Shown: positions 130-29,441 of the stretch, one piece after another
How the letters are laid out: each line of letters opens with the position of its first letter
How positions within the stretch are numbered: position 1 is the first letter of the stretch
Assembly (NCBI GenBank): GCA_963662545.2
Contig: CAXXLL010000003.1
Location: forward strand, 1,920,001-1,984,000
Direction of reading: 5' to 3'
Source of the DNA: Gammaproteobacteria bacterium
Lineage (GTDB): Bacteria > Pseudomonadota > Gammaproteobacteria > Ga0077536
Length of the DNA stretch: 64,000 nt
The notes under the pieces: generated by a model
Seen by the model: only the letters and a program-made list of their open reading frames with translations
Databases searched by the model: none
What the model was told of the DNA's origin: nothing
Made by a program: the position numbers and the translations under genes

Positions 130-349
130 CATATCGCCAGACGGTATTTGGCTTCTCTATGCAGACGAGGAGCTATTTATGCCGTTTGATGAGTTTCCGT
201 GGTTTAAGAAGGCTTCGGTCGAACAGATCTTGAATGTTGTCGAAGAACAACCGGGGACATTTCACTGGCCAGATCTTGACATTGATCTGGGGCTCGATTC
301 GATCCGTAATCCTGGCCATTACCCATTAAAAGCAAAAACCGACGCTTAG
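83..349 (+). CDS. DUF2442-family (DhiA-like) antitoxin
   Basis: ELFMPFDEFPWF...FHWPDLDIDL motif; overlaps the DUF4160 gene. Confidence 0.8.
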   Translation: MNSSQPGANTSTVVTDISPDGIWLLYADEELFMPFDEFPWFKKASVEQILNVVEEQPGTFHWPDLDIDLGLDSIRNPGHYPLKAKTDA

Positions 350-454
350 ATTCCCGAGCGTAGCGCAACCGCACCTAACAAATGGATCAACCGGACGTGA
401 TAGTTCCTACGGTTTAGTGGACACCCTGAACTAACTATTCAGGAGTGTTCCAAG

Positions 455-814
455 ATGCCAAAACCAGGCCCGAGAACGACGTATAAATACAGCGACGAAT
501 TCAAAGCGACAGCGGTCCGCTTAAGTGAACTGCCGGATGTAGCCATCCAGGATGTCGCTGCGTCTCTTTACATTCACCCCTTCATGTTGTCTCGTTGGCG
601 CAAACAAGTGCGCGAGGGAATGATCATGGCTAGAGGTGTGGAAATCGATAAAGAAACAGCGGCGGAGCTGAAAGCGCTGCGTCAGATGAAGAAGGACTAC
701 GAGCGTCTAAAAGTGGAGCATGACCTTTTAAAAAAAGCGATCGAGTTCACTTCCAAACGAAAAGCGATGTCTTCGCGTTCATCGACTACCACGTCAAAGA
801 AGGGATCTCGGTGA
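455..814 (+). CDS. IS3 transposase OrfA (HTH)
   Basis: [13 protein letters not shown]; ends LLKKA at the frameshift motif. Confidence 0.9.
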
Positions 815-1620
815 CGACGATGTGTGCGTTATACGACGTGAGTTCCAGTGGTTATTACGCCTGGCGGAAACGCCCGCGCAGTCAGCGCTCGATTGAGGAC
901 GAGGCGCTGTTGGTTGAGATCCGCGAGGCGCATGCGCTGGGCCGGAAGACCTATGGGAGTCCGCGTGTACACGAGGTCTTGTTGCAGCGCGGGAGGAAGG
1001 TCGGGCGACGCCGGATCGAACGATTGATGCGGGAAAATGGCATTCGCGGGTGCTCAGCCGACCAGTACCGTCGCACGCCTGGCCTGGACCGCTTCTTTGG
1101 TGTGATCGGCAATCGTATACACAAGATGCCGGTGACGGCACCCGACCAGGTGTGGGTCTCGGATGTGACCTATGTGAAGGTCAACGCTGAGTGGCGCTAT
1201 CTGTCGGTGGTAATGGATCGGTACTCACGTCGCGTATTGGGTTGGTCATTGGGGCCTGAGAAGACGGCAGCATTGACCGGTCGGGCGTTGCACCAAGCTT
1301 TGAAGCTGAGGCGGCCACCGGCGGGGACCGTATTTCACAGTGACCGCGGTTCAGAATATGTGGCTAGCCACCTGCAGGCTGCGCTGGGTAAGGCGAAGTT
1401 GGTCCCGAGTATGAATCGCCGGCGTCGGATGACGGACAATGCCCATATGGAGTCATGGAATAAGACGATGAAGTCCGACATGTACCACCGACGCCTGTTC
1501 AGCAGTGACAAACAGCTGCGCGATTCACTGCGTTCCTACATCGACTTCTATAATCGGGTGAGACTACACTCGTCTTTAGGATATCAATCACCGATAGCGT
1601 TTGAGCAAGCATGCAGCTAA
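811..1620 (+). CDS. IS3 transposase OrfB (rve DDE)
   Basis: [23 protein letters not shown] motifs. Confidence 0.95.
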
Positions 1621-1810
1621 CTTATGGGTGTCCACTTTTTCGTAGGAACTCCCCGCGGTACAGCAGGCTCCTTTGGGCCGGCTTCGCATTTTCGCCCCAA
1701 AGGAGCTGCTGTAACACACAGGTTATCCTAGCGTTAGGTGCTCCGGCGCGGACGTTACGGTGGATAAATTTCGAATGGCGCGATATCGAGCTGTATGCTA
1801 AGTTCAGTGC

Positions 1811-2026
1811 ATGAAAATCTCAGCCGCAGATACACTAGATATACCGATTCGGGAACGAATTCAGCTCGTTGCTGACATTTGGGAGAGCATCGCCGAATTT
1901 CCAGACGAGATCGAGCTTTCGGGAGCCACGCGGGAACTACTCCGAAAGCGATTGGAAGCGTATCGAGCAAATCCAAACGCCGGGTCCCCTTGGGAAGAGG
2001 TTAAGAATCGAATTTTGTCTAGATGA
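1811..2026 (+). CDS. Addiction-module antitoxin (TIGR02574-like)
   Basis: ERIQLVADIWESI...PWEEVK; overlaps a RelE/ParE gene. Confidence 0.85.
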   Translation: MKISAADTLDIPIRERIQLVADIWESIAEFPDEIELSGATRELLRKRLEAYRANPNAGSPWEEVKNRILSR

Positions 2027-2331
2027 GCCGCTCGCTCATCGTCGAACCAGAAGCCGAAACAGATATCTTGGACGGCTATATCTGGTACGAAAACCGAGAA
2101 GAAGGACTTGGATCGAGGTTTATCGAAGAACTTGAGTCCGCATTCAATCGGGTCGCCGCGAACCCTATGTCCTACCAGGAGGCAGAACCAGATATCAGAC
2201 GGTCCGTGACCCACGTTTTCCCGTATCTAGTATTCTTCTCCTTCGATGACGATGCAGTTTATGTGCTGGCTGTCATTCCAGCGTCCCAAAATCCTGATTA
2301 CATCAACGCGCGCCTTGAAGCTCTTGGCTAA
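2023..2331 (+). CDS. RelE/ParE-family toxin
   Basis: PEAETDI..WYE..GLGSRF..FPYLVFF..VLAV. Confidence 0.85.
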   Translation: MSRSLIVEPEAETDILDGYIWYENREEGLGSRFIEELESAFNRVAANPMSYQEAEPDIRRSVTHVFPYLVFFSFDDDAVYVLAVIPASQNPDYINARLEALG

Positions 2332-2376
2332 GGTTAATTCGCAAATCCACCCAATGTGTTCCAGGGACGATCCCGC

Positions 2377-2486
2377 ACCTAACAAGTGGATCAACCGGAC
2401 GTGTTACAGCGCGCTTGTTTGGGCCGGCGTCGCATTTTCGTCCCAAACAAGCGCGCTGTAACGCGCCGGTTATCCTGGCGTTAGGT
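2377..2486 (+). repeat. attC (110-bp family)
   Basis: ACCTAAC...GTTAGGT, paired stem. Confidence 0.95.
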
Positions 2487-2551
2487 ATTTTGGCAGGAAA
2501 CACTAGCGGCCGGGTGCTAACATTTACGATCAAGTGACGAAGGAGACGTCA

Positions 2552-3195
2552 ATGAAGATTCGTTCCACCGCAATCCTTGCGTCGATATTACTTGCTGGCA
2601 CACATCTCCCCGTCAGCGCCATTTATCTAAATGACCAGAATATTTTGGTTGCTCTCGGTTCTAGCATGTCTGCCGAGCCGTTTCAGAATCAAACTACCGC
2701 GGTTTCGCTGGCGAAGATCGATGCTCCAAACGCCGCAGCGTCTGAAAACCATGTCAGCCCAACAACCCACGTATGGGTGAGTGGCGGATCGCTGGAACTA
2801 GATTTTGATTTCGGCGTTGATGATCGCTCGAACTAGATTTTGACCATGACCTCACCATCCATTTCTGGAATTATCATTCAGAGGCGTTCGATGTTGACGA
2901 TATTGACTTCGTATTCCGCGATTCGTCTAGCAACATCGTCGGGAGCGTTCTAAATCTCAACCCCCAAGTTGGTGGCGGGGGGAGCAATCCTATATTCGCA
3001 GAAGATTTCGCATTGCAATTTCCATTGAATGTTCGGTTCGTGAATGTAGTGCTTTCCGGGTCGAACGGAGAGGTGGACTTTAACAACATAGGTTTTACAG
3101 GGGACATATCTGTCATTCCAATTCCGGCCTCGATATTCCTGCTGGCCTCTGGGATCTTAGGGATAAATGTAACCACCAAACGAAGAAGAACTTGA
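2552..3195 (+). pseudogene. Secreted PEP-CTERM-like (IPIPA) protein, split by an internal duplication
   Basis: Signal peptide; C-terminal IPIPA-TM-KRRR; 22-bp duplication at 2787-2808/2822-2843 breaks the frame. Confidence 0.7.
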
Positions 3196-4281
3196 ATTCA
3201 AGCGTGAAGTGCAACACGGGTAATTAGAGTCCTGCATAGATTTGCTCCGGTGTTTTGTATCCGAGTCGCTTTCTCGGACGTGTGTTGAGCTTCCTAGCGA
3301 TCGCATCGCATTCGTTTTGGGTAAGGTTCGCCATGCTTCTGCCCTTCGGCAGATACTGGCGTATCAAGCCGTTGGCATTCTCGTTCGTTCCGCGCTCCCA
3401 GGAATGATAAGGGGTGGCGAAATAGAAGGCGGCACCGGTGCGTTTTTCAATCGCGTCGTATTGGTGAAACTCGGTGCCATTGTCGGCGGTAACGGTACGC
3501 ACCCTGCGGGCCTCACGGTTAATCAGTTTGATCATGGCTCGATTGAGCTCGGCAGTGGTTCGCGCTTTGAGCTTACCGATGGCAACGAGTCCGGACTTGC
3601 GCTCGACCAGAGTCGCGATGCAATGGAGATCGCGACCGCCCATGACCGTATCACCCTCCCAATGTCCTATTCGGGATCGATTCTCCGCACCCGGTGGGCG
3701 CTGCGAAATATGACGTTTCCCCGGTAATACGCCTCGAGAATCGACCGAGCCGTAGCGTTTGCGCCATTTCTTGGTGGCCTGCCGAAGGTGGGTATAGAGG
3801 TATCCGCCTTCGTAATGGTCGTACCAGATGAACCGGTAAATAGTCTCGTGGCTGATAGCGCACACACGCCACAAGCGCAACCAGCCCGAGATCTGCTCTG
3901 GGCTCCATTCTAGCCGCACCAAAGCGCTGATCATTTGCAGCTGCCAGTCGGCAAACTGCCATTTTCTTCGTGATTCTCGCCGCCGGCGCCGGGTTCTGCT
4001 GTCTGCCTTGAAGGCGCGATAATCCCCGTCTTTGCACAGGTTTCTCTGCACTTCGCGCATCACCGTACTACGGTGGCGGCCGATGGCACGCCCGACCTCA
4101 GAATAGTTAAGTCCTTGCCAAAGCAGCGCCGCGATCTTATACCTCTCATCAGAGGTGATCTGGTGGTACCTCATCGTGGGTATCCTCTTCTTGCCGGAAA
4201 AGAATGCTTAAGAGTATCCCAGCTCGCTTCGTTTAACGCGATAGACGGAATTTCATGTGTTGCATTTACTTTGTGAATCCG
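3193..4281 (-). mobile_element. IS30-family element, copy 1 (intact)
   Basis: ~25-bp TIRs TGAATTCAAGCGTGAAGTGCAACAC / GTGTTGCATTTACTTTGTGAATCCG. Confidence 0.95.
3224..4174 (-). CDS. IS30 transposase
   Basis: GHWEGDTV, TADNGTEF, SWERGTNENANGLIRQY. Confidence 0.95.
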   Translation of the reverse strand: MRYHQITSDERYKIAALLWQGLNYSEVGRAIGRHRSTVMREVQRNLCKDGDYRAFKADSRTRRRRRESRRKWQFADWQLQMISALVRLEWSPEQISGWLRLWRVCAISHETIYRFIWYDHYEGGYLYTHLRQATKKWRKRYGSVDSRGVLPGKRHISQRPPGAENRSRIGHWEGDTVMGGRDLHCIATLVERKSGLVAIGKLKARTTAELNRAMIKLINREARRVRTVTADNGTEFHQYDAIEKRTGAAFYFATPYHSWERGTNENANGLIRQYLPKGRSMANLTQNECDAIARKLNTRPRKRLGYKTPEQIYAGL

Positions 4282-4285
4282 CCTC

Positions 4286-4395
4286 ACCTAACAAATGGAT
4301 CAACCTGACGTGTTACAGCAGGCTCCTTTCCAGCGGCTTCGCATTTTCGCCTCCAAGAAGCCTGCTGTAACACGCAGGTTATCCTGGCGTTAGGT
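4286..4395 (+). repeat. attC
   Basis: Family consensus. Confidence 0.95.
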
Positions 4396-4726
4396 GTCGC
4401 CAGGAAACTCAAATGAAATGGGAACTAATTGGCGCGTACGCAGAAGTCATCGGGGCTATAGCGGTCATCGTTTCAATCCTTTACCTCGCGTTACAGGTGC
4501 GCGACAACACTCGCTCAGTTAGGGCCAACGCAGGTTTCGAAGCCGCGCATTCTTGGGCAATCTCTAACGAGATCTTGTATCAAGCGCCAGAGAAGGACCG
4601 GATGGTTTTTGCGCGGGCGTTCGATCTCGGAGAATCGGTAGACAAGTTTTCTGAGAGCGAGCGAATCCACATCAGTATCTTGATGCGGTCATTATTTGAA
4701 AAACTCGAAGGGCAATACTATTTGTT

Positions 4727-6111
4727 GGGTCTACGCGGATTCATGTGGGTAAATTCTGAATTAGACCAAGTGTAAACCATTGAAATCATGTAGACATTCA
4801 GAGATTTCGTATGGGGTGAAAGTGGTTTCATTTTGTGGGTAGGCTAAGGCCATGAAGAATCCCAAGTCGATCCGAGCGCTGTTTGCGTTCCCTGGTTTTA
4901 CCGCCGCATCGAAATTGGTGGGCATGTTTGGTGATCGGTATGCCCGTGTGATCCAACTCAAGAGGCGAAAAAAACAGCGATCTGTTCTCACTGTGCTCAC
5001 CGGTGCCGCGGGCGTTACGACAAGAAGGTGCTGCGAGTACGAGACCTGTCAGTTGCCGGATGGCGAATCTACCTGGAGTTCGAACGCTGGCGTGTCAGTT
5101 GCCGGAGGTGCGGCGGCGTGCAGGTAGAACATCTTGACTGGCTGGCAAAGAACCCTCGCTATACGCAGCGCTTTGCCATGCAGGTGGGCAAGCTGTGCCG
5201 GGACATGCCGAACCAGGCTGTCGCCGAGAGGGAACGCCTGCACCACAGCACGGTGAAAGACCTCGATAAGCTGTACATGCAAAAGCAGGTTGAGCTGGCG
5301 GGCATGCCAGCACCCCGGGCCATCGGTATTGATGAGATCTCCATCCGCAAAGGACATAACTACCGGGTCATCGTCAGTGACCTGGATCGGGGGCGTCCTA
5401 TCTGGGTCGGTGGTGAAGGTCGCAAAGAGGCTGACATCGACCTGTTTTTCCAGGCATTGGGCGAGAACAAGAGCGCTCGCATCGAACTGGCGGCGATGGA
5501 CATGTGGAAGCCGTTCCGTAACTCGGTCATGAACAACGCACCGCAGGCGCGGATCATCTATGACAAGTTCCATATCATGCGCCACCTCTCAAAGGCTCTC
5601 GATGAAGTCCGGCGCCGTGAATACAAACGTCTCCGCGGCAAGGACAGGAGTTACATCAAAGGCCAGCGATATACCTTGCTCTCGCGACGCGAGAACCTGA
5701 ATCTGGATGGCAGACGAGCCCTGAAAAAACTGCTCCAGGCCAACCGGCGTCTGAACACCGCCTACGTCCTCAAGGAAACCTTCGGCCAACTCTGGGACTA
5801 CCGTACCGAGCGCGGCGCGCGTGCCTTTTTCGAGCGCTGGAAGGACAGTCTGAAATGGCAGCGATTGGCGCCGTATCGCAAGTTTGCTGAGCTGATTGAA
5901 TCCCATTGGGATGGCATTGCTTCCTATTGTGATGCTAAGAATAAAGTCAGTCTTGGATTGGTCGAAGGGGTCAACAACAAAATCCGGGTCCTGCAACGAC
6001 GCGCCTATGGCTATCGTGATGAGGAATTCCTCAAACTGAAAATCATTGCGGCATTTCTTCCGCCACTACCCAGAAATGCCAATATCAACCCACACGTTTC
6101 CGCGTAGACCC
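4727..6111 (+). mobile_element. ISL3-family element
   Basis: TIR GGGTCTACGCGGA / TCCGCGTAGACCC; 8-bp TSD TATTTGTT. Confidence 0.95.
4852..6107 (+). CDS. ISL3 transposase (-1 frameshift at A7, ~4968-4974)
   Basis: IGIDEIS, AAMDMWKPF, DKFH, EGVNNKI motifs; Zn finger in the shifted frame. Confidence 0.9.
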
Positions 6112-6343
6112 TATTTGTTTAAATACGGTAGCCTCGATCAAGCGATTTGGGATATCCGAAAGGCATGGGCGGCAGGCGCGTTGCAAACTCCGTTCTTTCA
6201 AAAATGGTGGGAGGTGGAAAAGAGTCAAGGGATTTACTCGCCAGAATTCATCGAACTCATCGAAAAAGCGCGGCCGATTTCGATAGACGGGTTTGCGAAT
6301 GAAACGAGGCCACTCGATGCTTAGACTTCCAAGTGAAATGCAC

Positions 6344-7665
6344 TGAGCGGACCGGGAGAAAGGTAACAAAAGTGCCAAGGTAGATGGGTAACACTTTTGT
6401 TATCGATAATGTCGTTTTAGTCGGCCGTAAGCATCTTCGATCCGATTGTATTTTTCAATCATTCGGCCGAGCTTAAGCGTTCCGAAATAGACGTTCCAAA
6501 CACCACAGTCGATTTCCTCTAATCCTATGTACTCACCGGCACACGCGATTGAGACAGGCACATGGGTGGAATGCCATCGGATGCCACCGTTGGCACTGAC
6601 GAAGCGCTTGATGAAACGGTCAGGATATTCGAGCGGCGGGATTTTGCTAGGCATTTCTTTGGCAGAAAATTCGTAGAAGTCGGCAGGTGTGAACATGTCG
6701 AGCGCTTCATGAGGGCGTTCTTCATTGAATTCAATCTGGAACCGATTAAATCGTTTCTGTTGCGCGCGATAGTCCCCGGCCGGAGGTCGAGTCGTCTCCG
6801 CCTTTAAGGTTCGGTGCATCCGTTCGTGTCGGCCATTTTGTTGAGGCTTTCCGGGTTCGATGAGCTCGGGATAAATACCAAGCCTGATCCACCAGGCAGA
6901 CAGCGTTGATAATCGACCGAGCGTGTTCGTCGCGAAGGGGACGCCGTTGTCGGTACGGATGCGTTCTGGCAGTCCGTATTCTTTGAATAAGCGGGTGAAC
7001 ACCGCCTTCGATGGTTCAACGGCGGTCGTGAGTAATGACTGGCATCCGATGAGGTATCGACTAAAGCCATCGGTGACGGTCAACGGGTAACAATACCGCC
7101 CGTCTTCGGTCTTGAAATGCCCTTTGAAGTCGGCGCCCCAGGTTTGGTTGGGTGCATTCATTCGGGTTTCAGGTTTTCCCGGATGCCCGAGTTTGCGTGA
7201 GCGCCGCGGTGTCCGGATGAATCCTTCACGGATTAGGATGTCATGAATGGTTGTCCGTGTTGGCCACGGCTCTCGCGGGTGCTTCCGCGATAGAAACGTC
7301 CGCAATTTACGAGCGCCCCAAGTCGGATGACGTTGTCGCGCATCGATGATCAGGCGCTCGAGCCGCGCCGGCGTTTTATGCGGGCAAGTTCTAGGCCGCC
7401 GTGTGCGTTCCTCTAAACCCGCCGGACCTTCGCTTAGATACCGATCAATCCATTTGTAGCCAGTCTTGCGACTGATGCCGTAATGTTCGCACAGCTCGGT
7501 AACTGTCAACAGGTCGCGCAGATAGTCTGCGATGAATTGCGTTTTTTCGTTCATTGGTGACGTTTCTCTCCAGGGCATCGGACTCCTCCTTTGAGGAACC
7601 TAATACCATTGATCTGTCACCCATGTACCTTGACTATAATGTTACCTATCTACCCGGTCCGTACC
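6344..7665 (-). mobile_element. IS481-family element
   Basis: TIRs TGAGCGGACCGGGAGAAAGGTAACA / TGTTACCTATCTACCCGGTCCGTACC; CAC duplication. Confidence 0.9.
6400..7578 (-). CDS. IS481 transposase
   Basis: MPWRETSPM start, WGADFKG, RTDNGVPF, QQNGRHER. Confidence 0.95.
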   Translation of the reverse strand: MPWRETSPMNEKTQFIADYLRDLLTVTELCEHYGISRKTGYKWIDRYLSEGPAGLEERTRRPRTCPHKTPARLERLIIDARQRHPTWGARKLRTFLSRKHPREPWPTRTTIHDILIREGFIRTPRRSRKLGHPGKPETRMNAPNQTWGADFKGHFKTEDGRYCYPLTVTDGFSRYLIGCQSLLTTAVEPSKAVFTRLFKEYGLPERIRTDNGVPFATNTLGRLSTLSAWWIRLGIYPELIEPGKPQQNGRHERMHRTLKAETTRPPAGDYRAQQKRFNRFQIEFNEERPHEALDMFTPADFYEFSAKEMPSKIPPLEYPDRFIKRFVSANGGIRWHSTHVPVSIACAGEYIGLEEIDCGVWNVYFGTLKLGRMIEKYNRIEDAYGRLKRHYR

Positions 7666-7673
7666 CACCATTC

Positions 7674-7783: not shown

Positions 7784-7793
7784 GGCAGGGAAA

Positions 7794-8259: not shown

Positions 8260-8345
8260 TCCTGGCCATTAAGCGTTAAAAGCAAAAACCGACGCTTAGA
8301 TTCCCGAGCGCAAAAACCGACGCTTAGATTCCCGAGCGCAACCGC

Positions 8346-8705: not shown

Positions 8706-8938
8706 AACAACCATCGAAGCCATTCGCACTATGCATTAACAATGACGACTACAAAGCGTCATTAATACTCGGAAAGGTCTACCGGCTTATCCCAGATAGA
8801 GACGCTGCGAAGGACGATTTCGTTCGAATCGTGGATGAAAGTAGCGAGGACTATCTATATCACAGGGCGCATTTCGTCTTCGTCGATTTTCCACCAGCAG
8901 TACGAAAACGAATTCTTGAAATAGAAAGCGCCACTTAA
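8702..8938 (+). CDS. Small hypothetical protein (putative antitoxin)
   Basis: FALCINNDDYKASL..GKVY..RIVDES.EDYLY. Confidence 0.6.
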   Translation: MKQPSKPFALCINNDDYKASLILGKVYRLIPDRDAAKDDFVRIVDESSEDYLYHRAHFVFVDFPPAVRKRILEIESAT

Positions 8939-9011
8939 GTTCACGATTGAAGTGGCTCAACAGCCCGCGGAAAGGTAAGAAAAATGTCCCGGGCTTCGTT
9001 AAACACCATTC

Positions 9012-9733: not shown

Positions 9734-9734
9734 A

Positions 9735-10809: not shown

Positions 10810-10851
10810 CGGCAAGGCGGAAACATCGACTTTATGCACCAAAATGCCGCC

Positions 10852-11936
10852 CAGATGTCCAAGTGAAGTGCAACAGGGGTGATTAAACTGCTGCATAACA
10901 TTCCTCCGGTGTTTTGACGCCGAGAACCCTTCGCGGACGTGTGTTGAGTTTCTTCGCTATCTTATCGCAGTCACGTTGTGTAACGTCTGCCATGGTTTTC
11001 CCTTTGGGCAGGTACTGTCGAATAAGGCCGTTGGTATTTTCATTGGTACCGCGTTCCCAGGAATGATACGGCGTGCAAAAATAGAAGCGAGCGTCGGTCG
11101 CGTTTTCTATCTTCTGGAACTGATGAAACTCAGTTCCATTATCGGCGGTTACGGTTCGCACCAAGCGCATTTCACGTTTGATAAGTTGGATCACTTTGCG
11201 GTTGAGTTCGGCGGTCGTGCGAGCCCGAAGTTTTCCGATTAAGGTATATCGTGTCTTACGTTCAACGAGGGTCACGATGCAGTGACCGTCGTGGCTACCG
11301 ATGACGGTGTCTATTTCCCAATGACCGATGCGGGAACGGTTTTCAGCGCCTGGTGGTCGTTCGGTGATATGGCGCTTTCCTCGCATAACACCGCGAGAAT
11401 CACCGCTGCCGTAGCGTTTCCGTCGTCGTTTTTCCGCCTGTCGCAGATGCTTATATAAGGTGCCGCCGAAGAAGTGGTCGTACCAGATATACCGGTATAG
11501 GGTCTGGTGACTGATTGAAAATATCCGATGACGCTTGAACCAATCCGAGACTTGCTAGGGGCTCCATTCCTCGCGCAGCAAGCGAATGGCGAGACTGAGT
11601 TGTTGGTCGGTGAAATACCATCGTCGGCGAGACTTCGTTCGCCTGCCTCGGGTCATCTCCTCAGCTTCGTCAGGACGATACCGACCGATGCGGCGATTAC
11701 GCTTTAGTTCGCGTCCGATCGTAGACCGATGTCGCCCGAGTTTTCGAGCGACCTCTGCGTTTTTACAGCCTTGCATTTTCAAGGTGTGAAGCATATACCT
11801 CTCTCCAGAGGTGAGCTGGTGATAACTCATCGTAAGTTTCCTATTCTGCCAAGAAGAGAATCTTACGAGTATCCCAGCTCGCTTCGTTTAACGCGATATA
11901 GGGAAATTCTTGTGTTGCACTTACATTGTGAATCCG
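10852..11936 (-). mobile_element. IS30-family element, copy 2 (transposase has an in-frame TAG at 11555)
   Basis: TIRs, CC/CC 2-bp duplication, IS30 motifs in 10883-11830. Confidence 0.95.
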
Positions 11937-11940
11937 CCTC

Positions 11941-13879: not shown

Positions 13880-14015
13880 ACCTAACAAATGGATCAACCG
13901 GACACGTTACAGCGGGCTTGTTTGGGCCCGCTTCGCTATTTTGGTCCCAAACAAGTCGTCTCCGCCTTTAAGGTTCGGTGCCCGCTGTAACGCGCCGGTT
14001 ATCCTAGCGTTAGGC
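13880..14015 (+). repeat. attC with a ~26-bp IS481-derived insertion
   Basis: Consensus plus GTCGTCTCCGCCTTTAAGGTTCGGTG. Confidence 0.85.
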
Positions 14016-14030: not shown

Positions 14031-14620
14031 ATGTCGCAATTTGAGTTCTTTATGATCATCGCCTCCGTTCTAGTGGCGATTGCAATTACAGAAGTCGTAC
14101 AGAAGTCGTAAGTTGGTGGGGCAAACTACTACGGAACAAACGAATGAGAGACGTTGGTAGCGTTTACTTAGCTTGGTCCGCTCTCTTCATTTGCACCATC
14201 GTCCTCTATTGGAGTGGCTTTTGGGCATACGAAGGCGTGATCATTGTTAACTATGCGCAAATCTGGATGTTGCTGCTACCAACTCTTCTCGCGATCTTAG
14301 TGGCATTCACAATTACGCCCAGTAGCGCTGAACCCTCATTTACTTTCCGCACCTACTATGAAGAAAATCGAAAACTCATTTTCTTCTGTTGGGCTTTATT
14401 TATTCTTGGGGCTGCAGTTGCTGACGTCGTGATGCTCAAATCAATAGATTTAGAAGGCGCACTCCCCGCAGGGGTTATAATCGGAATACTTGTTGCGTGC
14501 GGATTGACTAAGAATATTTGGGTTCACTGCATCGCCTTGGTGATTTTGTTTACTCTGATGCTTCTTGTTCCGGTTGCCTTGGGGTTTAAGGAAACTTTGG
14601 ACTTTTTCAGTGGCGCGTAG
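14031..14620 (+). pseudogene. Multi-TM hypothetical protein frameshifted by an 11-bp tandem duplication
   Basis: ACAGAAGTCGT x2 at 14088-14109; removing one copy restores the MSQFEFF... frame. Confidence 0.8.
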
Positions 14621-14643
14621 ACTTCGAAGCGAAGTGCATCACC

Positions 14644-15729
14644 CAGATGTCCAAGTGAAGTGCAACAGGGGTGATTAAACTGCTGCATAACATTCCTCCG
14701 GTGTTTTGACGCCGAGAACCCTTCGCGGACGTGTGTTGAGTTTCTTCGCTATCTTATCGCAGTCACGTTGTGTAACGTCTGCCATGGTTTTCCCTTTGGG
14801 CAGGTACTGTCGAATAAGGCCGTTGGTATTTTCATTGGTACCGCGTTCCCAGGAATGATACGGCGTGCAAAAATAGAAGCGAGCGTCGGTCGCGTTTTCT
14901 ATCTTCTGGAACTGATGAAACTCAGTTCCATTATCGGCGGTTACGGTTCGCACCAAGCGCATTTCACGTTTGATAAGTTGGATCACTTTGCGGTTGAGTT
15001 CGGCGGTCGTGCGAGCCCGAAGTTTTCCGATTAAGGTATATCGTGTCTTACGTTCAACGAGGGTCACGATGCAGTGACCGTCGTGGCTACCGATGACGGT
15101 GTCTATTTCCCAATGACCGATGCGGGAACGGTTTTCAGCGCCTGGTGGTCGTTCGGTGATATGGCGCTTTCCTCGCATAACACCGCGAGAATCACCGCTG
15201 CCGTAGCGTTTCCGTCGTCGTTTTTCCGCCTGTCGCAGATGCTTATATAAGGTGCCGCCGAAGAAGTGGTCGTACCAGATATACCGGTATAGGGTCTGGT
15301 GACTGATTGAAAATATCCGATGACGCTTGAACCAATCCGAGACTTGCTAGGGGCTCCATTCCTCGCGCAGCAAGCGAATGGCGAGACTGAGTTGTTGGTC
15401 GGTGAAATACCATCGTCGGCGAGACTTCGTTCGCCTGCCTCGGGTCATCTCCTCAGCTTCGTCAGGACGATACCGACCGATGCGGCGATTACGCTTTAGT
15501 TCGCGTCCGATCGTAGACCGATGTCGCCCGAGTTTTCGAGCGACCTCTGCGTTTTTACAGCCTTGCATTTTCAAGGTGTGAAGCATATACCTCTCTCCAG
15601 AGGTGAGCTGGTGATAACTCATCGTAAGTTTCCTATTCTGCCAAGAAGAGAGTGCTTACGAGTATCCCAGCTCGCTTCGTTTAACGCGATATAGGGAAAT
15701 TCTTGTGTTGCACTTACATTGTGAATCCG
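14644..15729 (-). mobile_element. IS30-family element, copy 3 (same nonsense codon as copy 2)
   Basis: Near-identical to 10852-11936. Confidence 0.95.
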
Positions 15730-15733
15730 GGCC

Positions 15734-17280: not shown

Positions 17281-17584
17281 TGAATCGCTCCCACGCCGTC
17301 TGAGCGACCTGCTGGAAGGCCACTCCGTAACTACGGTACAGGAACAAGGATGGGCTGGCGCCACTAACGGCGATTTGCTCCGCATGGCAGAGGCTGAGTT
17401 CGACGCTTTCCTAACGGCGGATCAGAATCTTCAATATCAACAGAATCTCGAAGGTTTCGACATCGCCGTACTTGTTATAGCTGCACCAAGTACACGTATC
17501 GCAGATCTAGAGCCGCTCGTCCCAGATATTCTATCGGCGCTCTCTGAAACCAAGATCGGTGAGGTGCGCCGAATTGCAGCGTAG
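17264..17584 (+). CDS. DUF5615 PIN-like (VapC45-like) toxin
   Basis: MRLLLDESLP...GW.G..NGDLL..FLTADQNL. Confidence 0.9.
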   Translation: MRLLLDESLPRRLSDLLEGHSVTTVQEQGWAGATNGDLLRMAEAEFDAFLTADQNLQYQQNLEGFDIAVLVIAAPSTRIADLEPLVPDILSALSETKIGEVRRIAA

Positions 17585-17608
17585 GTTAACAACCGAAATG
17601 CAACATTC

Positions 17609-22082: not shown

Positions 22083-22101
22083 CAAGGCGTTGCAGCGGAC
22101 A

Positions 22102-23357: not shown

Positions 23358-23453
23358 GTGTTACAGCGCGCTTCTTTGGGCCGGCTTTGTATTTTCGTTC
23401 CTAACAAGCGCGCTGTAACGCGCCGGTTATCCTAGCGTTGGGCGACTAAAACG

Positions 23454-23482
23454 TTGCGTGATGCGCAACACGCGACTATAAT
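23454..23482 (+). promoter_or_regulatory. Sigma70 promoter of the higBA cassette, with an operator-like palindrome
   Basis: TTGCGT-17 bp-TATAAT; overlapping GTTGCG..CGCAAC. Confidence 0.6.
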
Positions 23483-23488
23483 TATTAT

Positions 23489-23767
23489 GTGATCAGGAGC
23501 ATTCGCCACCGAGGCCTTAAGAATTTCTACGAGACAGGATCAAAAGCTGGTATCCAAACGTCTCAGATAAATCGTTTGAGAATGCTTCTAGCGGCACTTG
23601 ATACTGCACAACAGATCAATGATATGGATGTCCCAGGATTCGGGCCGCATACCCTAAAACGTAAGCTTAAAGGCCGCTGGTCAGTCGTCGTAGGTGGGAA
23701 TTGGAGGCTTACATTTGAGTTTCGAGATGGAGACGTCTATTTGTTAGGTTATGAGGACTATCACTAA
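23489..23767 (+). CDS. higB: HigB-family toxin
   Basis: IRSIRHRGLK.FY..G..WSV.VGGNWRLTF..DYH. Confidence 0.9.
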   Translation: MIRSIRHRGLKNFYETGSKAGIQTSQINRLRMLLAALDTAQQINDMDVPGFGPHTLKRKLKGRWSVVVGGNWRLTFEFRDGDVYLLGYEDYH

Positions 23768-24057
23768 TGGCTATGCATAACCCTCCTCACCCTGGAGAAT
23801 TTATTCGCGAGATCTATTTGGCACCGTATGATCTGAGCATTCGGAGTCTTGCTGAAAGTCTTGGGGTATCCGCCTCTACACTTGCCCGTGTAATTAGTGG
23901 CCAAAGTGGTATTAGTCCGGAAATGGCATTGCGTTTGTCGAAAGCCATCGGCCGGTCACCCGAGAGTTGGCTGGCTATGCAGCACAACTATGATCTTTGG
24001 CAAGCCCGAAAGGCTCTCGACCTTTCGCATGTCACCTCTATCGAATTTGCCGCGTAG
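23767..24057 (+). CDS. higA: HigA-family antitoxin
   Basis: HNPPHPGE..ISPEMALRL..SPESWLAMQ. Confidence 0.9.
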   Translation: MAMHNPPHPGEFIREIYLAPYDLSIRSLAESLGVSASTLARVISGQSGISPEMALRLSKAIGRSPESWLAMQHNYDLWQARKALDLSHVTSIEFAA

Positions 24058-24081
24058 ATGTCAACGTGAAATGCAATATTC

Positions 24082-24191
24082 GCCTAACAAATGGATCAGC
24101 CGGACGTGTTACAGCGCGCTCCTTTAGGTCGGCTCCGCATTTTCGCCCAAAAGAAGCGCGCTGTAACACGCCGGTCATCCCAGCGTTAAGT
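24082..24191 (+). repeat. attC
   Basis: GCCTAAC...GTTAAGT. Confidence 0.9.
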
Positions 24192-24218
24192 GTATTGAGA
24201 TCAAACCAAGGACATAAA

Positions 24219-24455
24219 GTGAAAACAATTAGTTGCAAACAACTAGGCGGCGCGTGCGATAAAGAGTTCCAGGCTGATTCTTTCGATGAAATCGCAGAAA
24301 TGAGCAAACAACATGGAAAAGAAATGTTTGAAAGAAATGATGAAGCTCACTTGAAAGCGATGAACGAAATGCGAGAACTCATGCAAAAGCCAGAAGCGAT
24401 GAAGGAATGGTTCGAGAATAAGAAAAAGGAGTTTGATGCGTTACCAGAAGATTAG
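24219..24455 (+). CDS. DUF1059-like small metal-binding protein
   Basis: KTISCKQLGGACD...H..E. Confidence 0.75.
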   Translation: MKTISCKQLGGACDKEFQADSFDEIAEMSKQHGKEMFERNDEAHLKAMNEMRELMQKPEAMKEWFENKKKEFDALPED

Positions 24456-24518
24456 ATGAGTGAGGGCATCAAACCATCCCATACAGATTCCAGAGAACTC
24501 CCAAACTATGAGAAATAC

Positions 24519-24629
24519 ACATAACAAGGCGCTCCAGCCGACAGCTTCCAGCGGGCTTTTCTTACGCAGCGTCCGCATTTTCGCTTCAGAAAAGCCCGCT
24601 GTAAGGCGCGGCTGAGCTTTGCGTTAGAT
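24519..24629 (+). repeat. attC (divergent family)
   Basis: ACATAAC...GTTAGAT; stem CAGCGGGCTTTTCT/AGAAAAGCCCGCTG. Confidence 0.85.
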
Positions 24630-24644
24630 GTACGAGAATTCGTT

Positions 24645-25109
24645 ATGAATTGGGACGCGACTGGAGCAATCGCCGACATAATCGGAGCAGCTGCGGTGGT
24701 AATAACGCTGGCATATTTGGCCGTGCAGATCCGTCAAAATACCAAAGCCGTGCGAGCATCCGCGCTCGACGCTAGCATCACTTCTTTTAACGGGGATCGA
24801 AGATCGATATACGAAAGCTCGGAACTTACACAAATATATATCCGAGGCATGGAAAACCACGAAAATCTTAGCGAGGATGAAATTCTCAGATTTCGACTAT
24901 TGATGCACAACAATATCTGGTGCGTTTGGAACATATATTCGCAAACTGAATTCGCTGGTCTTTCGCGTGGTACTTGGGAGGCGCAGAAGTCTCTTATCGT
25001 TCGAACTCTATCGGCCCCGGGCGGGGCTTGGTTTTGGCGAACATACAAGCACGAATTTGAAGGGTCATTTGAAAAGGAAATTGACCGAGTCCTACATGAA
25101 TCCACGTAG
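24645..25109 (+). CDS. MxW-family cassette protein
   Basis: MNWDATGAIAD..YLAVQIRQN..PGGAWFW. Confidence 0.8.
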   Translation: MNWDATGAIADIIGAAAVVITLAYLAVQIRQNTKAVRASALDASITSFNGDRRSIYESSELTQIYIRGMENHENLSEDEILRFRLLMHNNIWCVWNIYSQTEFAGLSRGTWEAQKSLIVRTLSAPGGAWFWRTYKHEFEGSFEKEIDRVLHEST

Positions 25110-25133
25110 ATTCACGACTGAAGCGGAACATCC

Positions 25134-25166
25134 GCCTAACAAATACATCAACCGGACGTGTTACAG
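25134..25166 (+). repeat. attC, left arm only
   Basis: GCCTAAC...CCGGACGTGTTACAG followed by unrelated DNA. Confidence 0.8.
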
Positions 25167-25180
25167 GTGATCCCTACCTT

Positions 25181-25615
25181 CTAAGCGGGCGGCTTCATGT
25201 CCTCGGGCGCAACGTCACGGACGTGCTGGCCGAAGTACCAGTGATGCCCTTCTGGATCCTCGGCGCCGTAGCGTCGGTCGCCGTAAAACTGGTCCTGGGG
25301 TTCTTCGAGAATCGTCGCCCCCGCCCCCTTGGCGTGTTCGAAATGCTTGTCCACGTCGTCAACGTAGACGTAGAGTTGCTGAGTGACATGGCCGATTCGC
25401 TTGGGGTTCTGGTATTCCCGGCTGGGGCATCCGATCATGATGACCCCGTCGGCTAGCTCCATCTCCGCATGGTTGATCTTTCCGTCAGGCCCAGGAAGCC
25501 GCATGCGCTCCCGGAAGCCGGAGGCCTTGGCGAGCCAGTCCAGAGCGCTGGCAACGTCTTCATACAGGAGGTAAGGCGTGATGCGGGGCATGTTCTCCGG
25601 GGGATTCGCGGGCAT
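25181..25615 (-). CDS. VOC/glyoxalase (PhnB-like) protein, inverted cassette
   Basis: ITPYL..HAEM..YGDR....DPEGHHW. Confidence 0.9.
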   Translation of the reverse strand: MPANPPENMPRITPYLLYEDVASALDWLAKASGFRERMRLPGPDGKINHAEMELADGVIMIGCPSREYQNPKRIGHVTQQLYVYVDDVDKHFEHAKGAGATILEEPQDQFYGDRRYGAEDPEGHHWYFGQHVRDVAPEDMKPPA

Positions 25616-25680
25616 CAGATGTCCTCCTCGTGCGTCGGTCCGATACGTTTATCGTAACATCGGCCCCAGGGTCGCGCGCC

Positions 25681-25815
25681 ACCCAACAAGGGCATGCAGC
25701 TGACCGCCAACAGCGCGTTCCAATCGAGGTTTGGTAGCCTACGGGCATCAACCTTGGGTGCCTCAGCCACCGTCGGCGGCTTGTTGGCGGCAGCTGATGC
25801 CCATGTCCGTTAGGT
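25681..25815 (+). repeat. attC (foreign type, 135 bp)
   Basis: ACCCAAC...GTTAGGT; GGGCATGCAGCTG/CAGCTGATGCCC stem. Confidence 0.85.
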
Positions 25816-25831
25816 GGCAGCGGAGGTGGTG

Positions 25832-26455
25832 ATGGATCAGTCAGCTAAGCTTTGGGACAAAATAGCAGAACGCTATTCGAAACGACCTATCGCTGATGAA
25901 GCGGGTTACCAAAAAAAACTGCAGGTCACACGTGAATATTTTCGGTCGGACATGGAGGTATTGGAGTTTGGCTGCGGGACAGGGTCGACAGCCATCGCCC
26001 ATGCGCCTTATGTGAAGCATATTCAAGCGATTGATATCTCATCGAAAATGATTGAGATCGCCCGAGGCAAAGCTGACGCAAACAAAATCGAAAATGTCAC
26101 ATTTAGGCGCTCGACCATCGATGAATTGAGCATGAACGATCAAACCTTGGATGCAGTGTTGGGGCTCAGTATTTTGCACTTGCTGGACAACAAGGAAAAG
26201 GTAATCGCCAGGATTCACAAAATACTCAAACCGGGCGGCATTTTCGTCACAAGCACGGCGTGCATTGGAGATGCGATGAAGTTTTTTAAGATTGTCGCGC
26301 CGATTGGAAAATTCTTAGGTTTGATGTCGTTGGTCAAGGTCTTTACCACAAGAGAGTTGGAAGACAGTTTTACCGATGCCGGTTTTGAGATTGACTACCA
26401 ATCGCAACCGGGTAAAAACAAAGCAGTGTTTATAGTGGCGAAGAAGGTCGAGTAG
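25832..26455 (+). CDS. Class I SAM-dependent methyltransferase
   Basis: VLEFGCGTG, IDIS, LKPGG. Confidence 0.9.
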   Translation: MDQSAKLWDKIAERYSKRPIADEAGYQKKLQVTREYFRSDMEVLEFGCGTGSTAIAHAPYVKHIQAIDISSKMIEIARGKADANKIENVTFRRSTIDELSMNDQTLDAVLGLSILHLLDNKEKVIARIHKILKPGGIFVTSTACIGDAMKFFKIVAPIGKFLGLMSLVKVFTTRELEDSFTDAGFEIDYQSQPGKNKAVFIVAKKVE

Positions 26456-26503
26456 GAGCGATTAACTCCATATGCGGACATTGTGTTTACTTTAAAGAGT
26501 GCC

Positions 26504-26575
26504 ACCTAACAAATCGCTGCACGTGACGCCAAAACGCTTCGCGTTAATGTCGCAGGTGAGCTCAAGCCGTTAGGC
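26504..26575 (+). repeat. attC (short, 72 bp)
   Basis: ACCTAAC...GTTAGGC. Confidence 0.8.
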
Positions 26576-26642
26576 GGCAATAAGAATTAGGCACTCACCT
26601 ACATTTAGCTAATCATACAATCCGAACCAGGGAGATCTCATT

Positions 26643-27077
26643 ATGGATATGGCGGAATTGGAACAGCGAATCACCCGACTCGAAGACATTGAGGCTATAA
26701 AGCAGCTCAAAGCTCTGTATTGCGAAATCTGCGACGACATGCACAACCCCGACAGAATCGCTTCGGTTTTTGCCGAAGATGCCATCTGGGAAAGCGCCGA
26801 TTTTGGCAAAGCCCAGGGCCATGACGCCATTCGCGAACTATTTCGTGGCTTCCAGAAGATGTTCAGTTTTTCTCAGCACAACATCATGAATCCGAGAATC
26901 GAAGTCAACGGGGACCGCGCTACAGGTATTTGGTACATCATGGGTCCATGGACGCATTCCGAAAATAACAGAGAGATCTGGATGACCGCGAGATATGACG
27001 ACGACTACGTGAAAATAGATGGCGAATGGAAATACCAACATTTAAGGGCAGCCGTTCGAATGATTGCCGATCGATGA
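26643..27077 (+). CDS. SnoaL/NTF2-like (LinA/BaiE-like) protein
   Basis: EDIEAIKQLKALYC..D..H...NP.I..Y.DDY.K.DGEW. Confidence 0.85.
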   Translation: MDMAELEQRITRLEDIEAIKQLKALYCEICDDMHNPDRIASVFAEDAIWESADFGKAQGHDAIRELFRGFQKMFSFSQHNIMNPRIEVNGDRATGIWYIMGPWTHSENNREIWMTARYDDDYVKIDGEWKYQHLRAAVRMIADR

Positions 27078-27096
27078 GATGGCTACGGTAATAGAG

Positions 27097-27127
27097 GCCA
27101 AACACGCCGGTTATCCTAGCGTTAGGT
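27097..27127 (+). repeat. attC remnant (right arm)
   Basis: GCCAAACACGCCGGTTATCCTAGCGTTAGGT. Confidence 0.75.
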
Positions 27128-27173
27128 CGCAGACCTTGATCATACTAAATACGGTATATGTACTTTATATAGT

Positions 27174-27455
27174 ATGTGGATAGTTTATGAGCATCGGCGG
27201 ATCAACAGAGCGGTAAAGTCCACCCCCGATGAAGTCCTGAAACGATATGAAAAATGGAAAGACATTTTAACGTTGTCAAGGCCGAAGGGACTTCGCCAAA
27301 TCAAGGGATTTCGAGACGAAGCTCTCAGCGGTGAATGGAAAGGCCATCGATCGTCAAGGCTCGGCCTTCAATACCGAGTCATATATAGGGTCGAAGCAGG
27401 TTCGGTGTTGGTATTTGTAATCGATCCGGTCGCCCACGATTACCGGAAGAAATGA
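27174..27455 (+). CDS. RelE-superfamily toxin
   Basis: DEALSGEWKGHRSSRL...YRVIY..HDY. Confidence 0.85.
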   Translation: MWIVYEHRRINRAVKSTPDEVLKRYEKWKDILTLSRPKGLRQIKGFRDEALSGEWKGHRSSRLGLQYRVIYRVEAGSVLVFVIDPVAHDYRKK

Positions 27456-27456
27456 T

Positions 27457-27714
27457 ATGAAAGATTTCAAACGTGCAAAACGTCGGATTGAAGTGAGTGT
27501 AGGTGAGTCAGTGCGAATCCTCCGCGAGCTACAGAAAATGAGCCAAAACGAACTGTCCGCCGCGTGCGGTATTCCGCAGTCGACCATTTCGGCGATAGAG
27601 AACGATCGGATAAACCTAGGCGTTGAGCGTGCAAAACAGTTGGCACACGCCTTAAAGTGTCATCCGGCAATACTGGTATTTCCAGGATGGCAAATTGACG
27701 ATTATGCGGCTTAG
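27457..27714 (+). CDS. XRE HTH antitoxin
   Basis: LRELQKMSQNELS..GIPQSTISAIEN. Confidence 0.9.
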   Translation: MKDFKRAKRRIEVSVGESVRILRELQKMSQNELSAACGIPQSTISAIENDRINLGVERAKQLAHALKCHPAILVFPGWQIDDYAA

Positions 27715-27725
27715 ATTTCCTAGCA

Positions 27726-29424
27726 AGTGTCCGTCCATAAACAGGCATTTTCTTCGATGGGCACGGAGAAATCGAGGTGTTGAAAGTAGGTTGTTGGAGC
27801 GGTAGCGGCGGTTCGGTGGGGGTCGAAGGGCTCTTCGAGCGTAATTGTGAGTACGTTCGCCGGCCGCAGAGCGCTGCAACCCAAAGTCGCCCGTTCGACG
27901 ATATCGAGGAGGTCAGTTAGTGCGAGTGAACGTCGCTATTCGAGTTGATAGCGCGCGAGCAGGCTGAGGTTGTAGGCGACCACAGAAGACCACACGTAGG
28001 CTTCGAAGTGCGGCAGGCTCTTCCAGGTGCAACGTGCCAATCCGTATGCACGCTTCAGGCAGGAGATACCGGCCTCGATGCCGGCGCGGAAGTTGCGCAA
28101 GCGTCGATAGACCCACTGACTCTTGACCATGTCGGCGATCGCGAGCCCGCGCTTCTTGTGGAAGGCAACGTCTTCGATGCCTTCTGCTTTCGCCGCCCGG
28201 AGATTGTCGAGGCTCGCATAGCCGCCATCGGCGGCGACCTGTCGTGGCATCGTCCCGTAGTGTGTTCGATGCCGTTCGAGCATCGGCATGAAGCGCTGAC
28301 TATCGACCGGATTGCCTCGCTCGATGACCACGTCGAGGATGAGGCCACTGCGCCCCGAAGCCAGATTGATTTTGTGTCCGTACTGAACGTCGCGCGCACC
28401 CTTTATGATGATGTCGGTATGCGGCTCGAACAAGCTCACGCACTTCTCGCTCGCGGGGACCTTCTCACCGCCGAACACCCGCCGCTCAGTTTGCGAAATC
28501 ACCTGCAGAACAAGTGTTTCGTAGTGCGCTACCTGCGCTAGCCAGTCCGGCAGTTCAACGCCGGTGACGCCCGGGCTCAGCAGCTGCTCACGTACCCTCG
28601 CTACCGCTTCCAAGGTTGAACGCGTCGCCCCAATCAAATCGCGATACAGACGTTGGCGTTGCTTCGCACCACGCGCATACCACAGCGCCCGCGCACGCTT
28701 CTTCGCCAATCGAGTGTGGTTCACGAAGCACAACTCCGGCGCGCCAGGCAACTCGCGCGCCTGTGCGAGCAGACGAACCACAACACGCACGCCATCCCAC
28801 AGCAGATGACTGTCGCTCGGCGCGTGGATGGCACTGTCCGTTACCGTGCTATCAATCCGTACACGCTGTGCCGGCTCAATGCGCGTCTCTTTCGCCGTCG
28901 CCAGCAGGGCGCGATGAATAGACTCCCACGTCGATACCTGGATCGCCGAGACCACCCGCTGTAAGGCAGACTTCTTCGGACGTTCATTACCCGGCAACCG
29001 GGCGAAGGCCTGAAAGCTCGCCGAGTCCTGCAGGTGAAAGGCCAGCTCCTCGTAACTCAATTGCCGGTGCTGCTTGAGCACCGCGCAGCGCAGCACCGAC
29101 TCCGCCGACAGTCCGCGTCGACCGGTGGGCTTCAAACCCCGCCGACACAGATCGTTCATGACCGGCGTGAGGACCTTGGGGTGAGCATCGAGCCACTCGG
29201 ACATGCCCTGCAGCTCTCGCCCCAGGTCATGGTCAGCAAACAGCTCGTATATACTCGCTTGGGCCGTGCGTTTCTGACGCATTCCCCCTCCTGTGGTGTC
29301 GATGATTGTGTGGAAAATCAGAGGTTTGAAGTTCCATTAGATCACGACCCACCGGAGGTTTCGATCCCTTAAGCGACAAATTTTCCTTTTTATTTCAACC
29401 GCATCGCGTTTAGGGATGCACACT
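27726..29424 (-). mobile_element. ISNCY/IS5-like element, copy 2
   Basis: Same 1699-bp length and identical translated transposase as copy 1; TSD AGCA. Confidence 0.9.
27936..29282 (-). CDS. DDE transposase
   Basis: Identical protein to 18738-20084. Confidence 0.9.
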   Translation of the reverse strand: MRQKRTAQASIYELFADHDLGRELQGMSEWLDAHPKVLTPVMNDLCRRGLKPTGRRGLSAESVLRCAVLKQHRQLSYEELAFHLQDSASFQAFARLPGNERPKKSALQRVVSAIQVSTWESIHRALLATAKETRIEPAQRVRIDSTVTDSAIHAPSDSHLLWDGVRVVVRLLAQARELPGAPELCFVNHTRLAKKRARALWYARGAKQRQRLYRDLIGATRSTLEAVARVREQLLSPGVTGVELPDWLAQVAHYETLVLQVISQTERRVFGGEKVPASEKCVSLFEPHTDIIIKGARDVQYGHKINLASGRSGLILDVVIERGNPVDSQRFMPMLERHRTHYGTMPRQVAADGGYASLDNLRAAKAEGIEDVAFHKKRGLAIADMVKSQWVYRRLRNFRAGIEAGISCLKRAYGLARCTWKSLPHFEAYVWSSVVAYNLSLLARYQLE

Positions 29425-29441
29425 AGCAAAGTGCAACGTCG

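Follow-up and report, generated by a model that had tools for sequence, protein, structure and literature searches.

Results and discussion

The subject of this work is a 26-nt motif that recurs between genes and attC recombination sites in a gene-cassette array of a gammaproteobacterium, together with the insertion sequences (ISs) of the IS30 family that reside in the same genome. The window analysed, by which we mean the whole 64,000-nt stretch G000:C3:1920001-1984000, carries the array on the plus strand of its first 30 kb. Positions given without a prefix are those of the window, and those preceded by C2 or C3 are those of the genome. The attC sites of the array are approximately 110 nt long and extend from R'' (ACCTAAC) to R' (GTTAGGT). 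Their assignment is based on R'' (RYYYAAC) and R' (GTTRRRY) cores placed around an imperfect palindrome and on the presence of intI in the genome, where two integron integrases scored above the TIGR02249 cut-off (C2 996723 and C3 1527239), neither of them adjoining the array of the window. A profile made from the array sites recovered 60 non-overlapping attC sites genome-wide, in several clusters. The insertion sequences of the array were assigned using NCBIfam models to the IS30, IS481-like (220 bits, for a cut-off of 224), ISNCY, ISL3, IS3 and IS4 families. A congener (G001), two sister genera sharing the attC type (G006 and G023) and 400 sampled genomes from the class were used for comparison.

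A first-pass annotation of the window had described IS30-end-like copies of the motif starting at the stop codons of six unrelated genes at a fixed distance from attC, along with a further copy abutting an IS30 element and an intact element whose own end supplies a stop. All eight sites were found at their reported positions, and hand counts against the left end of the type B element described below returned the same identities: 19/24 at 6322 (reconstructed), 19/24 at 24055 and 18/24 at 14618. The register towards attC was likewise borne out, with 27 nt from the stop to the first base of R'' (26 nt at 347). The true length of the motif is 26 nt, as it begins 2 nt 5' of the TAG. The description of the six genes as unrelated has to be relaxed, since two of them both encode HTH_3 proteins; the open reading frames (ORFs) bearing the motif comprise DUF2442, DUF5615/PIN-like and these two HTH_3 members, and several of no known family.

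To score the motif we used a position weight matrix (PWM) whose only input was the four distinct ends found on resident IS30 elements, which makes it independent of the motif itself. At a threshold of at least 18 bits the genome gave 40 matches and a first-order Markov genome gave three; at 20 bits or more these figures were 36 and none, respectively. Both the likeness to IS30 ends and the fixed attC register stand as first reported. Fifteen of the matches are ends of complete copies of IS30 elements or of a miniature inverted-repeat transposable element (MITE). The other 25 matches of at least 18 bits, with six weaker ones recognised beside attC or by eye, make up a set of 31 isolated copies, hereafter called solos, of which one or two (the matches at C3 965266 and C3 889060) may be due to chance. 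At the 49 attC sites whose 5' end is complete, matches of at least 15 bits were separated from R'' by a 4-nt tail in seven cases, a 3-nt tail in one and a 57-nt tail in one; there were none at the remaining offsets printed, and no repeated matches inside attC sites. A chance origin is ruled out by the simulated genome and the offset profile. The motif was also considered as an extension of attC or as the attC 5' end repeated in tandem, and this was rejected because only 8 of 30 positions agree (hand count).

Complete IS30 elements at the edge of attC

Five complete IS30-family copies of two types, A (one copy) and B (four copies), were identified. Three lie in the window (Table 1) and the two others, both of type B, at C3 357492-358581 and C2 1162150-1163239. 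Membership of the IS30 family is indicated by the element A transposase, which scored 291.4 bits on NF033563 (cut-off 80) and matched Pfam HTH_38 and rve, and by the overall organisation of the elements, which are 1089-1093 bp long with 26-bp inverted repeats (IRs) and a single 316-aa ORF. The transposases of the two types are 65% identical at the amino acid level. In 5/5 complete copies, of both types, the right inverted repeat (IRR) lies 3 nt before the CCTAAC of attC R'' and in one orientation. A duplicated gene offers an empty site (C3 908474) to be compared with a filled one (C3 357489). This comparison revealed a CCA duplication, defined the ends of type B as CCCAGATG...GAATCCGGG and placed the insertion between bases 1 and 2 of R''. 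Short target duplications were also found for an element of G023 (ACA) and for one MITE copy (CAT). The MITE is 205 bp long, has IS30-type ends (left inverted repeat, IRL, CTTAG...; IRR ...GAATCCGGG) and is present in three copies: one at a non-attC site flanked by the CAT duplication, one beside CTTAAC, and one within a cassette, where it is cut by an IS481-like element.

Several further features of these copies were observed. The transposase genes of both type B copies in the window (10889-11830 and 14681-15622) contain one in-frame TAG each; those at C3 357601 and C2 1162189 are intact. The cassette gene upstream of element A (2534-3195), labelled PEP-CTERM-like from its C-terminal sequence as no Pfam family was matched, is broken by a frame change near 2820-2840, where a short duplication is visible. 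At 14636-14650, type B copy 2 stands directly on a solo without the expected tail and duplication, for which the collapse of a CCCA CCCA repeat might account.

Solo copies of the left end

The motif is very probably a solo 26-nt IRL derived from members of the IS30 family whose insertion is specific to the 5' edge of attC. The two ends of complete elements differ at position 16, which is G in IRL and T in IRR; the solos carry G in 29 of 31 cases and T in none. The stop codon at positions 3-5 is retained in 25/31 solos, every solo adjoining an attC points towards it, and one solo is identical at 26/26 positions to the IRL of the 205-bp MITE. The solos also occupy the insertion site of the complete copies, with normal pre-R'' sequence before the tip and CCTAAC after the tail. 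Specifically, their left flank (AAAxTGCCG) is the sequence usually found 5' of R'' in motif-less cassettes.

The tail that separates a solo from R'' is nearly always 4 nt long and of the form T-Y-C-R, and a truncated third IS30 type at C2 2095633 shows IRL followed by TCGG. Tails of other length were found as a module of approximately 57 nt and, in G001, as a tail of approximately 21 nt in which GAATTCGG resembles an IRR tip. In an orthologous two-gene cassette the tail is 4 nt long in this genome; in G001 this cassette has the same solo (20/26 identical, hand count) with 52 extra nt before attC.

The longer module (53-57 nt, between solo IRL and attC) was observed at 8960-9011, C2 1372531-1372586 and C3 2553416-2553460, and in G001 on L019 (~7296) and L020 (~7279). 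It contains a ribosome-binding-site-like AAAGAAAA and an ATG that opens a mini-frame M-x-x-A-S-L-N-A with synonymous Leu changes (TTA/TTG/CTA), and, read as its reverse complement, it is similar to the leader that precedes the IS30 transposase (GCGTTAAACGAAGC).

Table 1 Solo left ends, complete IS30-family elements, MITE copies and IS481-like copies
Feature	Position	Strand	Details
Solo IRL-like 26-mer	345-370	+	3-nt tail GCA; TAG 347-349 ends DUF2442 ORF 50-349; R'' from 373
Solo IRL, left 24 nt	6320-6343	+	Split by IS481-like element 6344-7664
Rest and tail of the 6320 solo IRL	7665-7673	+	Directly 5' of attC 7674
Copy of the 345 solo IRL with 5-nt internal deletion	8323-8343	+	Partial tandem duplicate 5'; attC from 8346
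Solo IRL	8934-8959	+	TAA at positions 3-5 ends 84-codon frame; then 53-nt module and attC 9012 (variant V2)
Solo IRL	14616-14641	+	TAG ends 191-codon frame (ORF 14144-14620); abuts element B copy 2
Solo IRL	17580-17605	+	Tail TTCA; TAG ends DUF5615/PIN-like ORF; attC from 17609
Solo IRL	24053-24078	+	Tail TTCG; TAG ends HTH_3 ORF 23767-24057; attC from 24082
Solo IRL	25105-25130	+	Tail TCCG; TAG ends ORF 24645-25109 (expanded family); partial attC from 25134
Solo IRL, left 17 nt	27710-27726	+	TAG ends HTH_3 ORF 27457-27714; split by ISNCY 27727-29423
Same solo IRL as 27710, right 9 nt	29430-29438	+	Then tail TCGA and attC 29442-29543
IS30-family element A, complete, 1093 bp	3191-4283	-	IRL 3191-3216; transposase 3224-4174 (minus); IRR 4258-4283; IRR tip, TCA, CCTAAC of attC 4286-4395
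IS30-family element B copy 1	10850-11938	-	IRR tip, TCA, CCTAAC of attC 11941; one in-frame TAG
IS30-family element B copy 2	14642-15731	-	IRR tip, CCA, CCTAAC of attC 15734; one in-frame TAG
MITE copies, 205 bp	C2 1579642-1579846, C2 1168664-1168868, C2 ~1373282-1373482		
IS481-like copies	6344-7664; C3 1917898, 1722078, 1720673, 1524380; C2 989366, 1167978, 1166571, 439847, 2113789		

The same insertion habit in relatives

The joint between IRR and attC was also found in other genomes. The element of G023, which is 62% identical and has the IRL tip CTTAG, is flanked by a perfect ACA duplication and reads IRR-ACA-CCTAAC into an attC, and in G006 an IRR-GCG-CCTAAC joint is present at a contig end. 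The 400-genome sample contained relatives at 54-62% identity in four genomes. Three of them showed xxTAAC at the 3-nt offset, namely in a textbook attC (G121), an attC-like site (G258) and an unclear site (G035); the relative in G298 had no xxTAAC at this offset. Among the 25 matches at 47% identity or less, which were judged by eye, no such attC-type flank was seen. Judging from their flanking sequence, relatives of at least 50% identity mostly adjoin attC. One copy of ISVa6 (52% identity) in Vibrio campbellii is found 3' of attC R', with a GTA duplication, and not at R'', so the level of identity is by itself insufficient to define the attC habit.

From metagenomes, 80 relatives of 50-66% identity were kept, of which 67 had an IRR and at least 9 nt of flank. 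TAAC occupied flank nucleotides 6-9 in 55 of these 67 and was never found at offsets 0-2 or 4-6. The flank hexamers were CCTAAC (37), GCTAAC (8), CATAAC (5), TCTAAC (3) and TATAAC (2), and one flank that was read through turned out to be a textbook 60-nt attC. Flanking triplets were identical in 17 of 51 metagenome loci, a figure that assembly across repeats may depress.

In the sister genera G006 and G023, approximately 40 attC sites were read and gave zero solos, only complete IS30 copies being present. A pattern with a free gap, run on the 400 genomes of the class, returned three matches beyond the own genome and two in a reversed control; of the three, the two in G121 are true solos with 10-nt tails and that in G075 is not IR-like.

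Why the motif meets stop codons

The longest frame of the motif-less cassettes in this genome ends at the TAA of R'' ([A/G]CC TAA C) in 10 of 23 cases. An insertion after base 1 of R'' would convert [A/G]CC TAA into [A/G]C[T/G] TAG, as bases 1-2 of IRL are CT or CG. The last residue would still be Ala or Thr and the protein would be unchanged, with the stop now supplied by the IRL, so that the gene would look fused to the motif. The last codons seen at solos are GCT, GCG, ACG and ACT. As a solo adds 26 + 4 = 30 nt, the frame with the old TAA is kept. Within an expanded protein family of 40 or more copies, some paralogues end in ...A/T and the TAA of R'' and others in ...A/T and the TAG of a solo IRL, and the TGA at IRL positions 3-5 of element A ends the PEP-CTERM-like frame upstream. 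Positions 3-5 of IRL read TAG or TGA in 61/64 metagenome loci, whereas none of 73 IRRs has such a stop. The G023 element was examined as a showcase for a silent insertion and discarded, its actual upstream ORF ending 33 nt earlier.

The reported fusion to stop codons is valid for all eight solos of the window and is not general. Genome-wide, IRL positions 3-5 are the exact end of the longest ORF in 15/31 solos (one reading on to a TGA inside the IR), and at about 12 solos this ORF ends 5-69 nt upstream. The proportion of fused solos is similar to that of motif-less cassettes ending at the R'' TAA. The meeting of motif and stop codon is very probably a side effect of precise in-frame insertion and not of cassette building.

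Weighing the alternatives

A number of observations weigh against reading the solos as remnants of attC-specific IS30 insertions. Identical flanking triplets were found in only one of the five complete copies (B3) and not in B1, B2, B4 or A. At the solos, the left triplet equals the last 3 nt of the tail in only 1/17 cases (hand count), and given this mismatch the solos do not show the clean duplication that a simple remnant should have. The tails in G121 measure 10-13 nt rather than 4, and approximately 18 cassettes have a full-length 26-nt IR with a fixed tail, unlike what random decay would predict. Precise excision of IS30 from non-IR targets does not occur according to PMC9333248. No IS30 mechanism is known to leave a lone IR. 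The fusion to stop codons is uneven, affecting 8/8 solos in the window and 7/23 elsewhere. In the metagenome set, the frame ending at the IRL stop is open for at least 60 codons in 15/40 loci compared with 11/40 and 6/40 for the other two frames, and lends weak support to the stop-frame reading. Lastly, distant IS30 members can also have TAG or TGA at positions 3-5, so no adaptation to attC is claimed.

The first-pass annotation had proposed that an IS30 end and an attC are attached as a unit to the 3' ends of genes. According to this idea, IS30 transposase would join the two to arbitrary genes and thereby create cassettes. In its favour are the start of the motif at the stop of 15 unrelated or distantly related ORFs, the fixed attC register and the occurrence of the same architecture in distant taxa. 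However, ORFs lacking the motif also stop within R'' and have the same last codon (Ala/Thr), what precedes the motif is normal pre-R'' sequence, and the motif lies where complete elements insert and where an empty site exists. It precedes attC sites belonging to various families, both here and in other genomes, and about 12 solos lie 5-69 nt after an ORF stop and not at it. Furthermore, no right-end-like partner was detected inside or after attC among matches of at least 12 bits, and 0/31 solos are of the IRR type; without a right-end partner beyond attC, the motif and attC are not a transposable unit. We therefore regard this origin of cassettes as scarcely credible. Palindromes that follow some solos (C2 744839 and 984201) were considered as a second attC class; they fold but have no clear R', and they were counted only as a different downstream sequence.

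The other two options of the first-pass annotation were a landing pad and an excision scar. As a landing pad, the motif would be kept because it recruits IS30 transposase and guides new insertions, in line with the finding that 2/4 type B copies and one MITE copy lie in cassettes already holding a solo IRL and with the targeting of its own IRs by E. coli IS30 (PMC9333248). No such pad is needed, since 3/5 complete copies (A, B1 and B4) sit in motif-less cassettes, and most metagenome insertions have an ordinary flank. Moreover, the insertions lie at the edge of R'', inward of the solo, and not tip-to-tip as in the IR-targeting of IS30, and 3/8 events represent no enrichment because solo-bearing cassettes are common. 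We judge a landing pad to be quite improbable. Alternatively, the 26-mer could be a functional module of the host or integron, such as a protein-binding site or a spacer that holds termination at a distance from the folded attC, which IS30 ends mimic. The maintenance of full-length 26-mers with a fixed tail, and the retention of the solo in the orthologous cassette of the congener, would be expected of such a module, but it is missing from the approximately 40 attC sites of the same type in the two sister genera, complete IS30 copies aside. Besides, the 26-mer matches the IS30 IRL even at the IRL-specific base, its middle varies as it does between IS species, and it is often split by other insertion sequences with no visible consequence, which makes a host module very improbable indeed. 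The excision scar comes closest to the reading that we prefer, of solos as left ends of inserted elements, for which remnant is the better term.

How a single left end may be left behind

Solos would be leftovers of complete elements after loss of the transposase gene and IRR. The feature in common is that IRR is lost and its tip is the right endpoint, which favours a transposase-linked event over random decay, and the uniform 4-nt tail suggests a precise, probably transposase-linked deletion that ends at this tip. Such a deletion could start from breakage at the IRR tip and trimming as far as the IRL protected by the transposase, or from a reaction of the IRR-3 bp-R'' joint, which resembles the IR-IR junction of IS30. 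As the tail is unlike the left triplet it may derive from inside the IS; old age also fits. The longer-tailed variants, with the tail of approximately 57 nt and the 205-bp MITE, look like intermediates, and the former can be likened to the right subterminal region of the IS.

A more specific version of these events is that attC R'' acts as a surrogate left end, making the IRR-3 bp-R'' arrangement a live junction from which the transposase deletes the element back to IRL and leaves IRL + 4 nt. We consider this unlikely, although worth stating for what it would entail. If true, attC DNA would be a substrate of an IS30 transposase, which might also move or rearrange segments linked to attC, and a weaker form of the earlier idea would survive, namely transposase-driven remodelling of cassette 3' ends.

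Other elements and features of the array

An IS481-like element with ends TGAGCGGACCGGG...CCCGGTCCGTAC and a duplication of approximately 4 bp is repeatedly inserted 9-10 nt 5' of attC R'', either within a solo IRL or where the 57-nt module ends, and looks like a second attC-proximal, site-specific IS. ISNCY-family copies were found at 18529-~20225 and 27727-29423 (transposase 474 bits on NF033593), the latter with a 6-bp TAGCAA duplication inside a solo IRL. The members of the expanded protein family (24645-25109, 4413-4775 and 40 or more other places) are proteins of approximately 150 aa that begin with a hydrophobic helix and share the motif LAVQIRQNT; they have no Pfam or NCBIfam match, and many are encoded in cassettes.

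The attC at 13880-14015 is 137 nt long and contains a 27-nt insert, GTCGTCTCCGCCTTTAAGGTTCGGTGC, identical to a stretch within the IS481-like transposase gene (~6790-6816). The array ends with the attC at 29442-29543, which has no R' core (...GGTTATCCTAG and then GTATATGG) and is followed by a gene (29801-31948) for a 715-aa protein with weak thiol-disulfide (DsbD/DsbH-like) matches. In G023 (L011-L013, e.g. L012 1095, 1582 and 9051), approximately 10 cassettes have a conserved block of approximately 55 nt, ACGTTGCCAGTTGTAAATGTCGTCGTAGCTGAACGGGAGTCGGGAAACAGTGCGTGTGCA, just 5' of R''; this block is not IS30-like.

Relation to known systems and significance

To our knowledge, insertion sequences that home to attC have so far been known only in the IS1111 family, alongside the group IIC introns. 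The IS1111-attC group has a DEDD transposase and generates no target duplication, and group IIC-attC introns have been discussed in connection with cassette formation. These two were the only attC-homing elements found in the literature searched, which contained no description of IS30-family elements targeting attC; as the search did not extend to ISfinder, novelty is provisional. PMC12016507, relevant by its title, was set aside as it concerns an IS5-family element.

The IS1111-attC group is mentioned in PMC12444791 with reference to Tetu & Holmes 2008 and Post & Hall 2009. It consists of insertion sequences targeting integron attC sites and shares with the elements studied here attC specificity and a single orientation. 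Unlike that group, the present elements encode a DDE transposase of the IS30 type, carry 26-bp IRs and duplicate 3 bp, and they use the outer 5' edge of R'' and leave attC intact. They act alike but are no members of the group, their transposase being of the IS30 and not of the DEDD type. In the sections of PMC9333248 consulted, E. coli IS30 has the same 26-bp IRs, single transposase and marked target specificity, and its reactive form is an IRR-spacer-IRL junction, which the IRR-3 bp-R'' geometry resembles. It differs in making 2-bp duplications at near-palindromic hot spots or its own IRs, where the elements here duplicate 3 bp and use the xxTAAC of attC, and solo IR remnants, present here, are not described for it in those sections. 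Group IIC-attC introns (PMC3001079) are likewise mobile elements homing to attC, but they are retroelements inserted inside attC, without transposase or IRs. ISAjo2 of the IS1202 family (PMC10132070) is also found in a single orientation and with a short, fixed spacing to the core of a site-specific recombination site; it belongs to another family and targets dif/pdif (Xer) sites, not attC.

Overall, an apparently widespread subgroup of IS30 elements has the attC habit but uses a site that is distinct and very precisely fixed. As the stop codon comes with the element, the gene upstream is often unaffected by the insertion, and the subgroup leaves many uniform, one-ended footprints in cassette arrays. 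In cassette annotation, conserved 'spacers' that separate genes from attC can be accounted for by the 26-mer and its variants, and the footprints are useful for reading the history of an array. With regard to the origin of cassettes, a tempting but wrong clue is removed, and what the footprints pose instead is a mechanistic puzzle for IS30 transposition.

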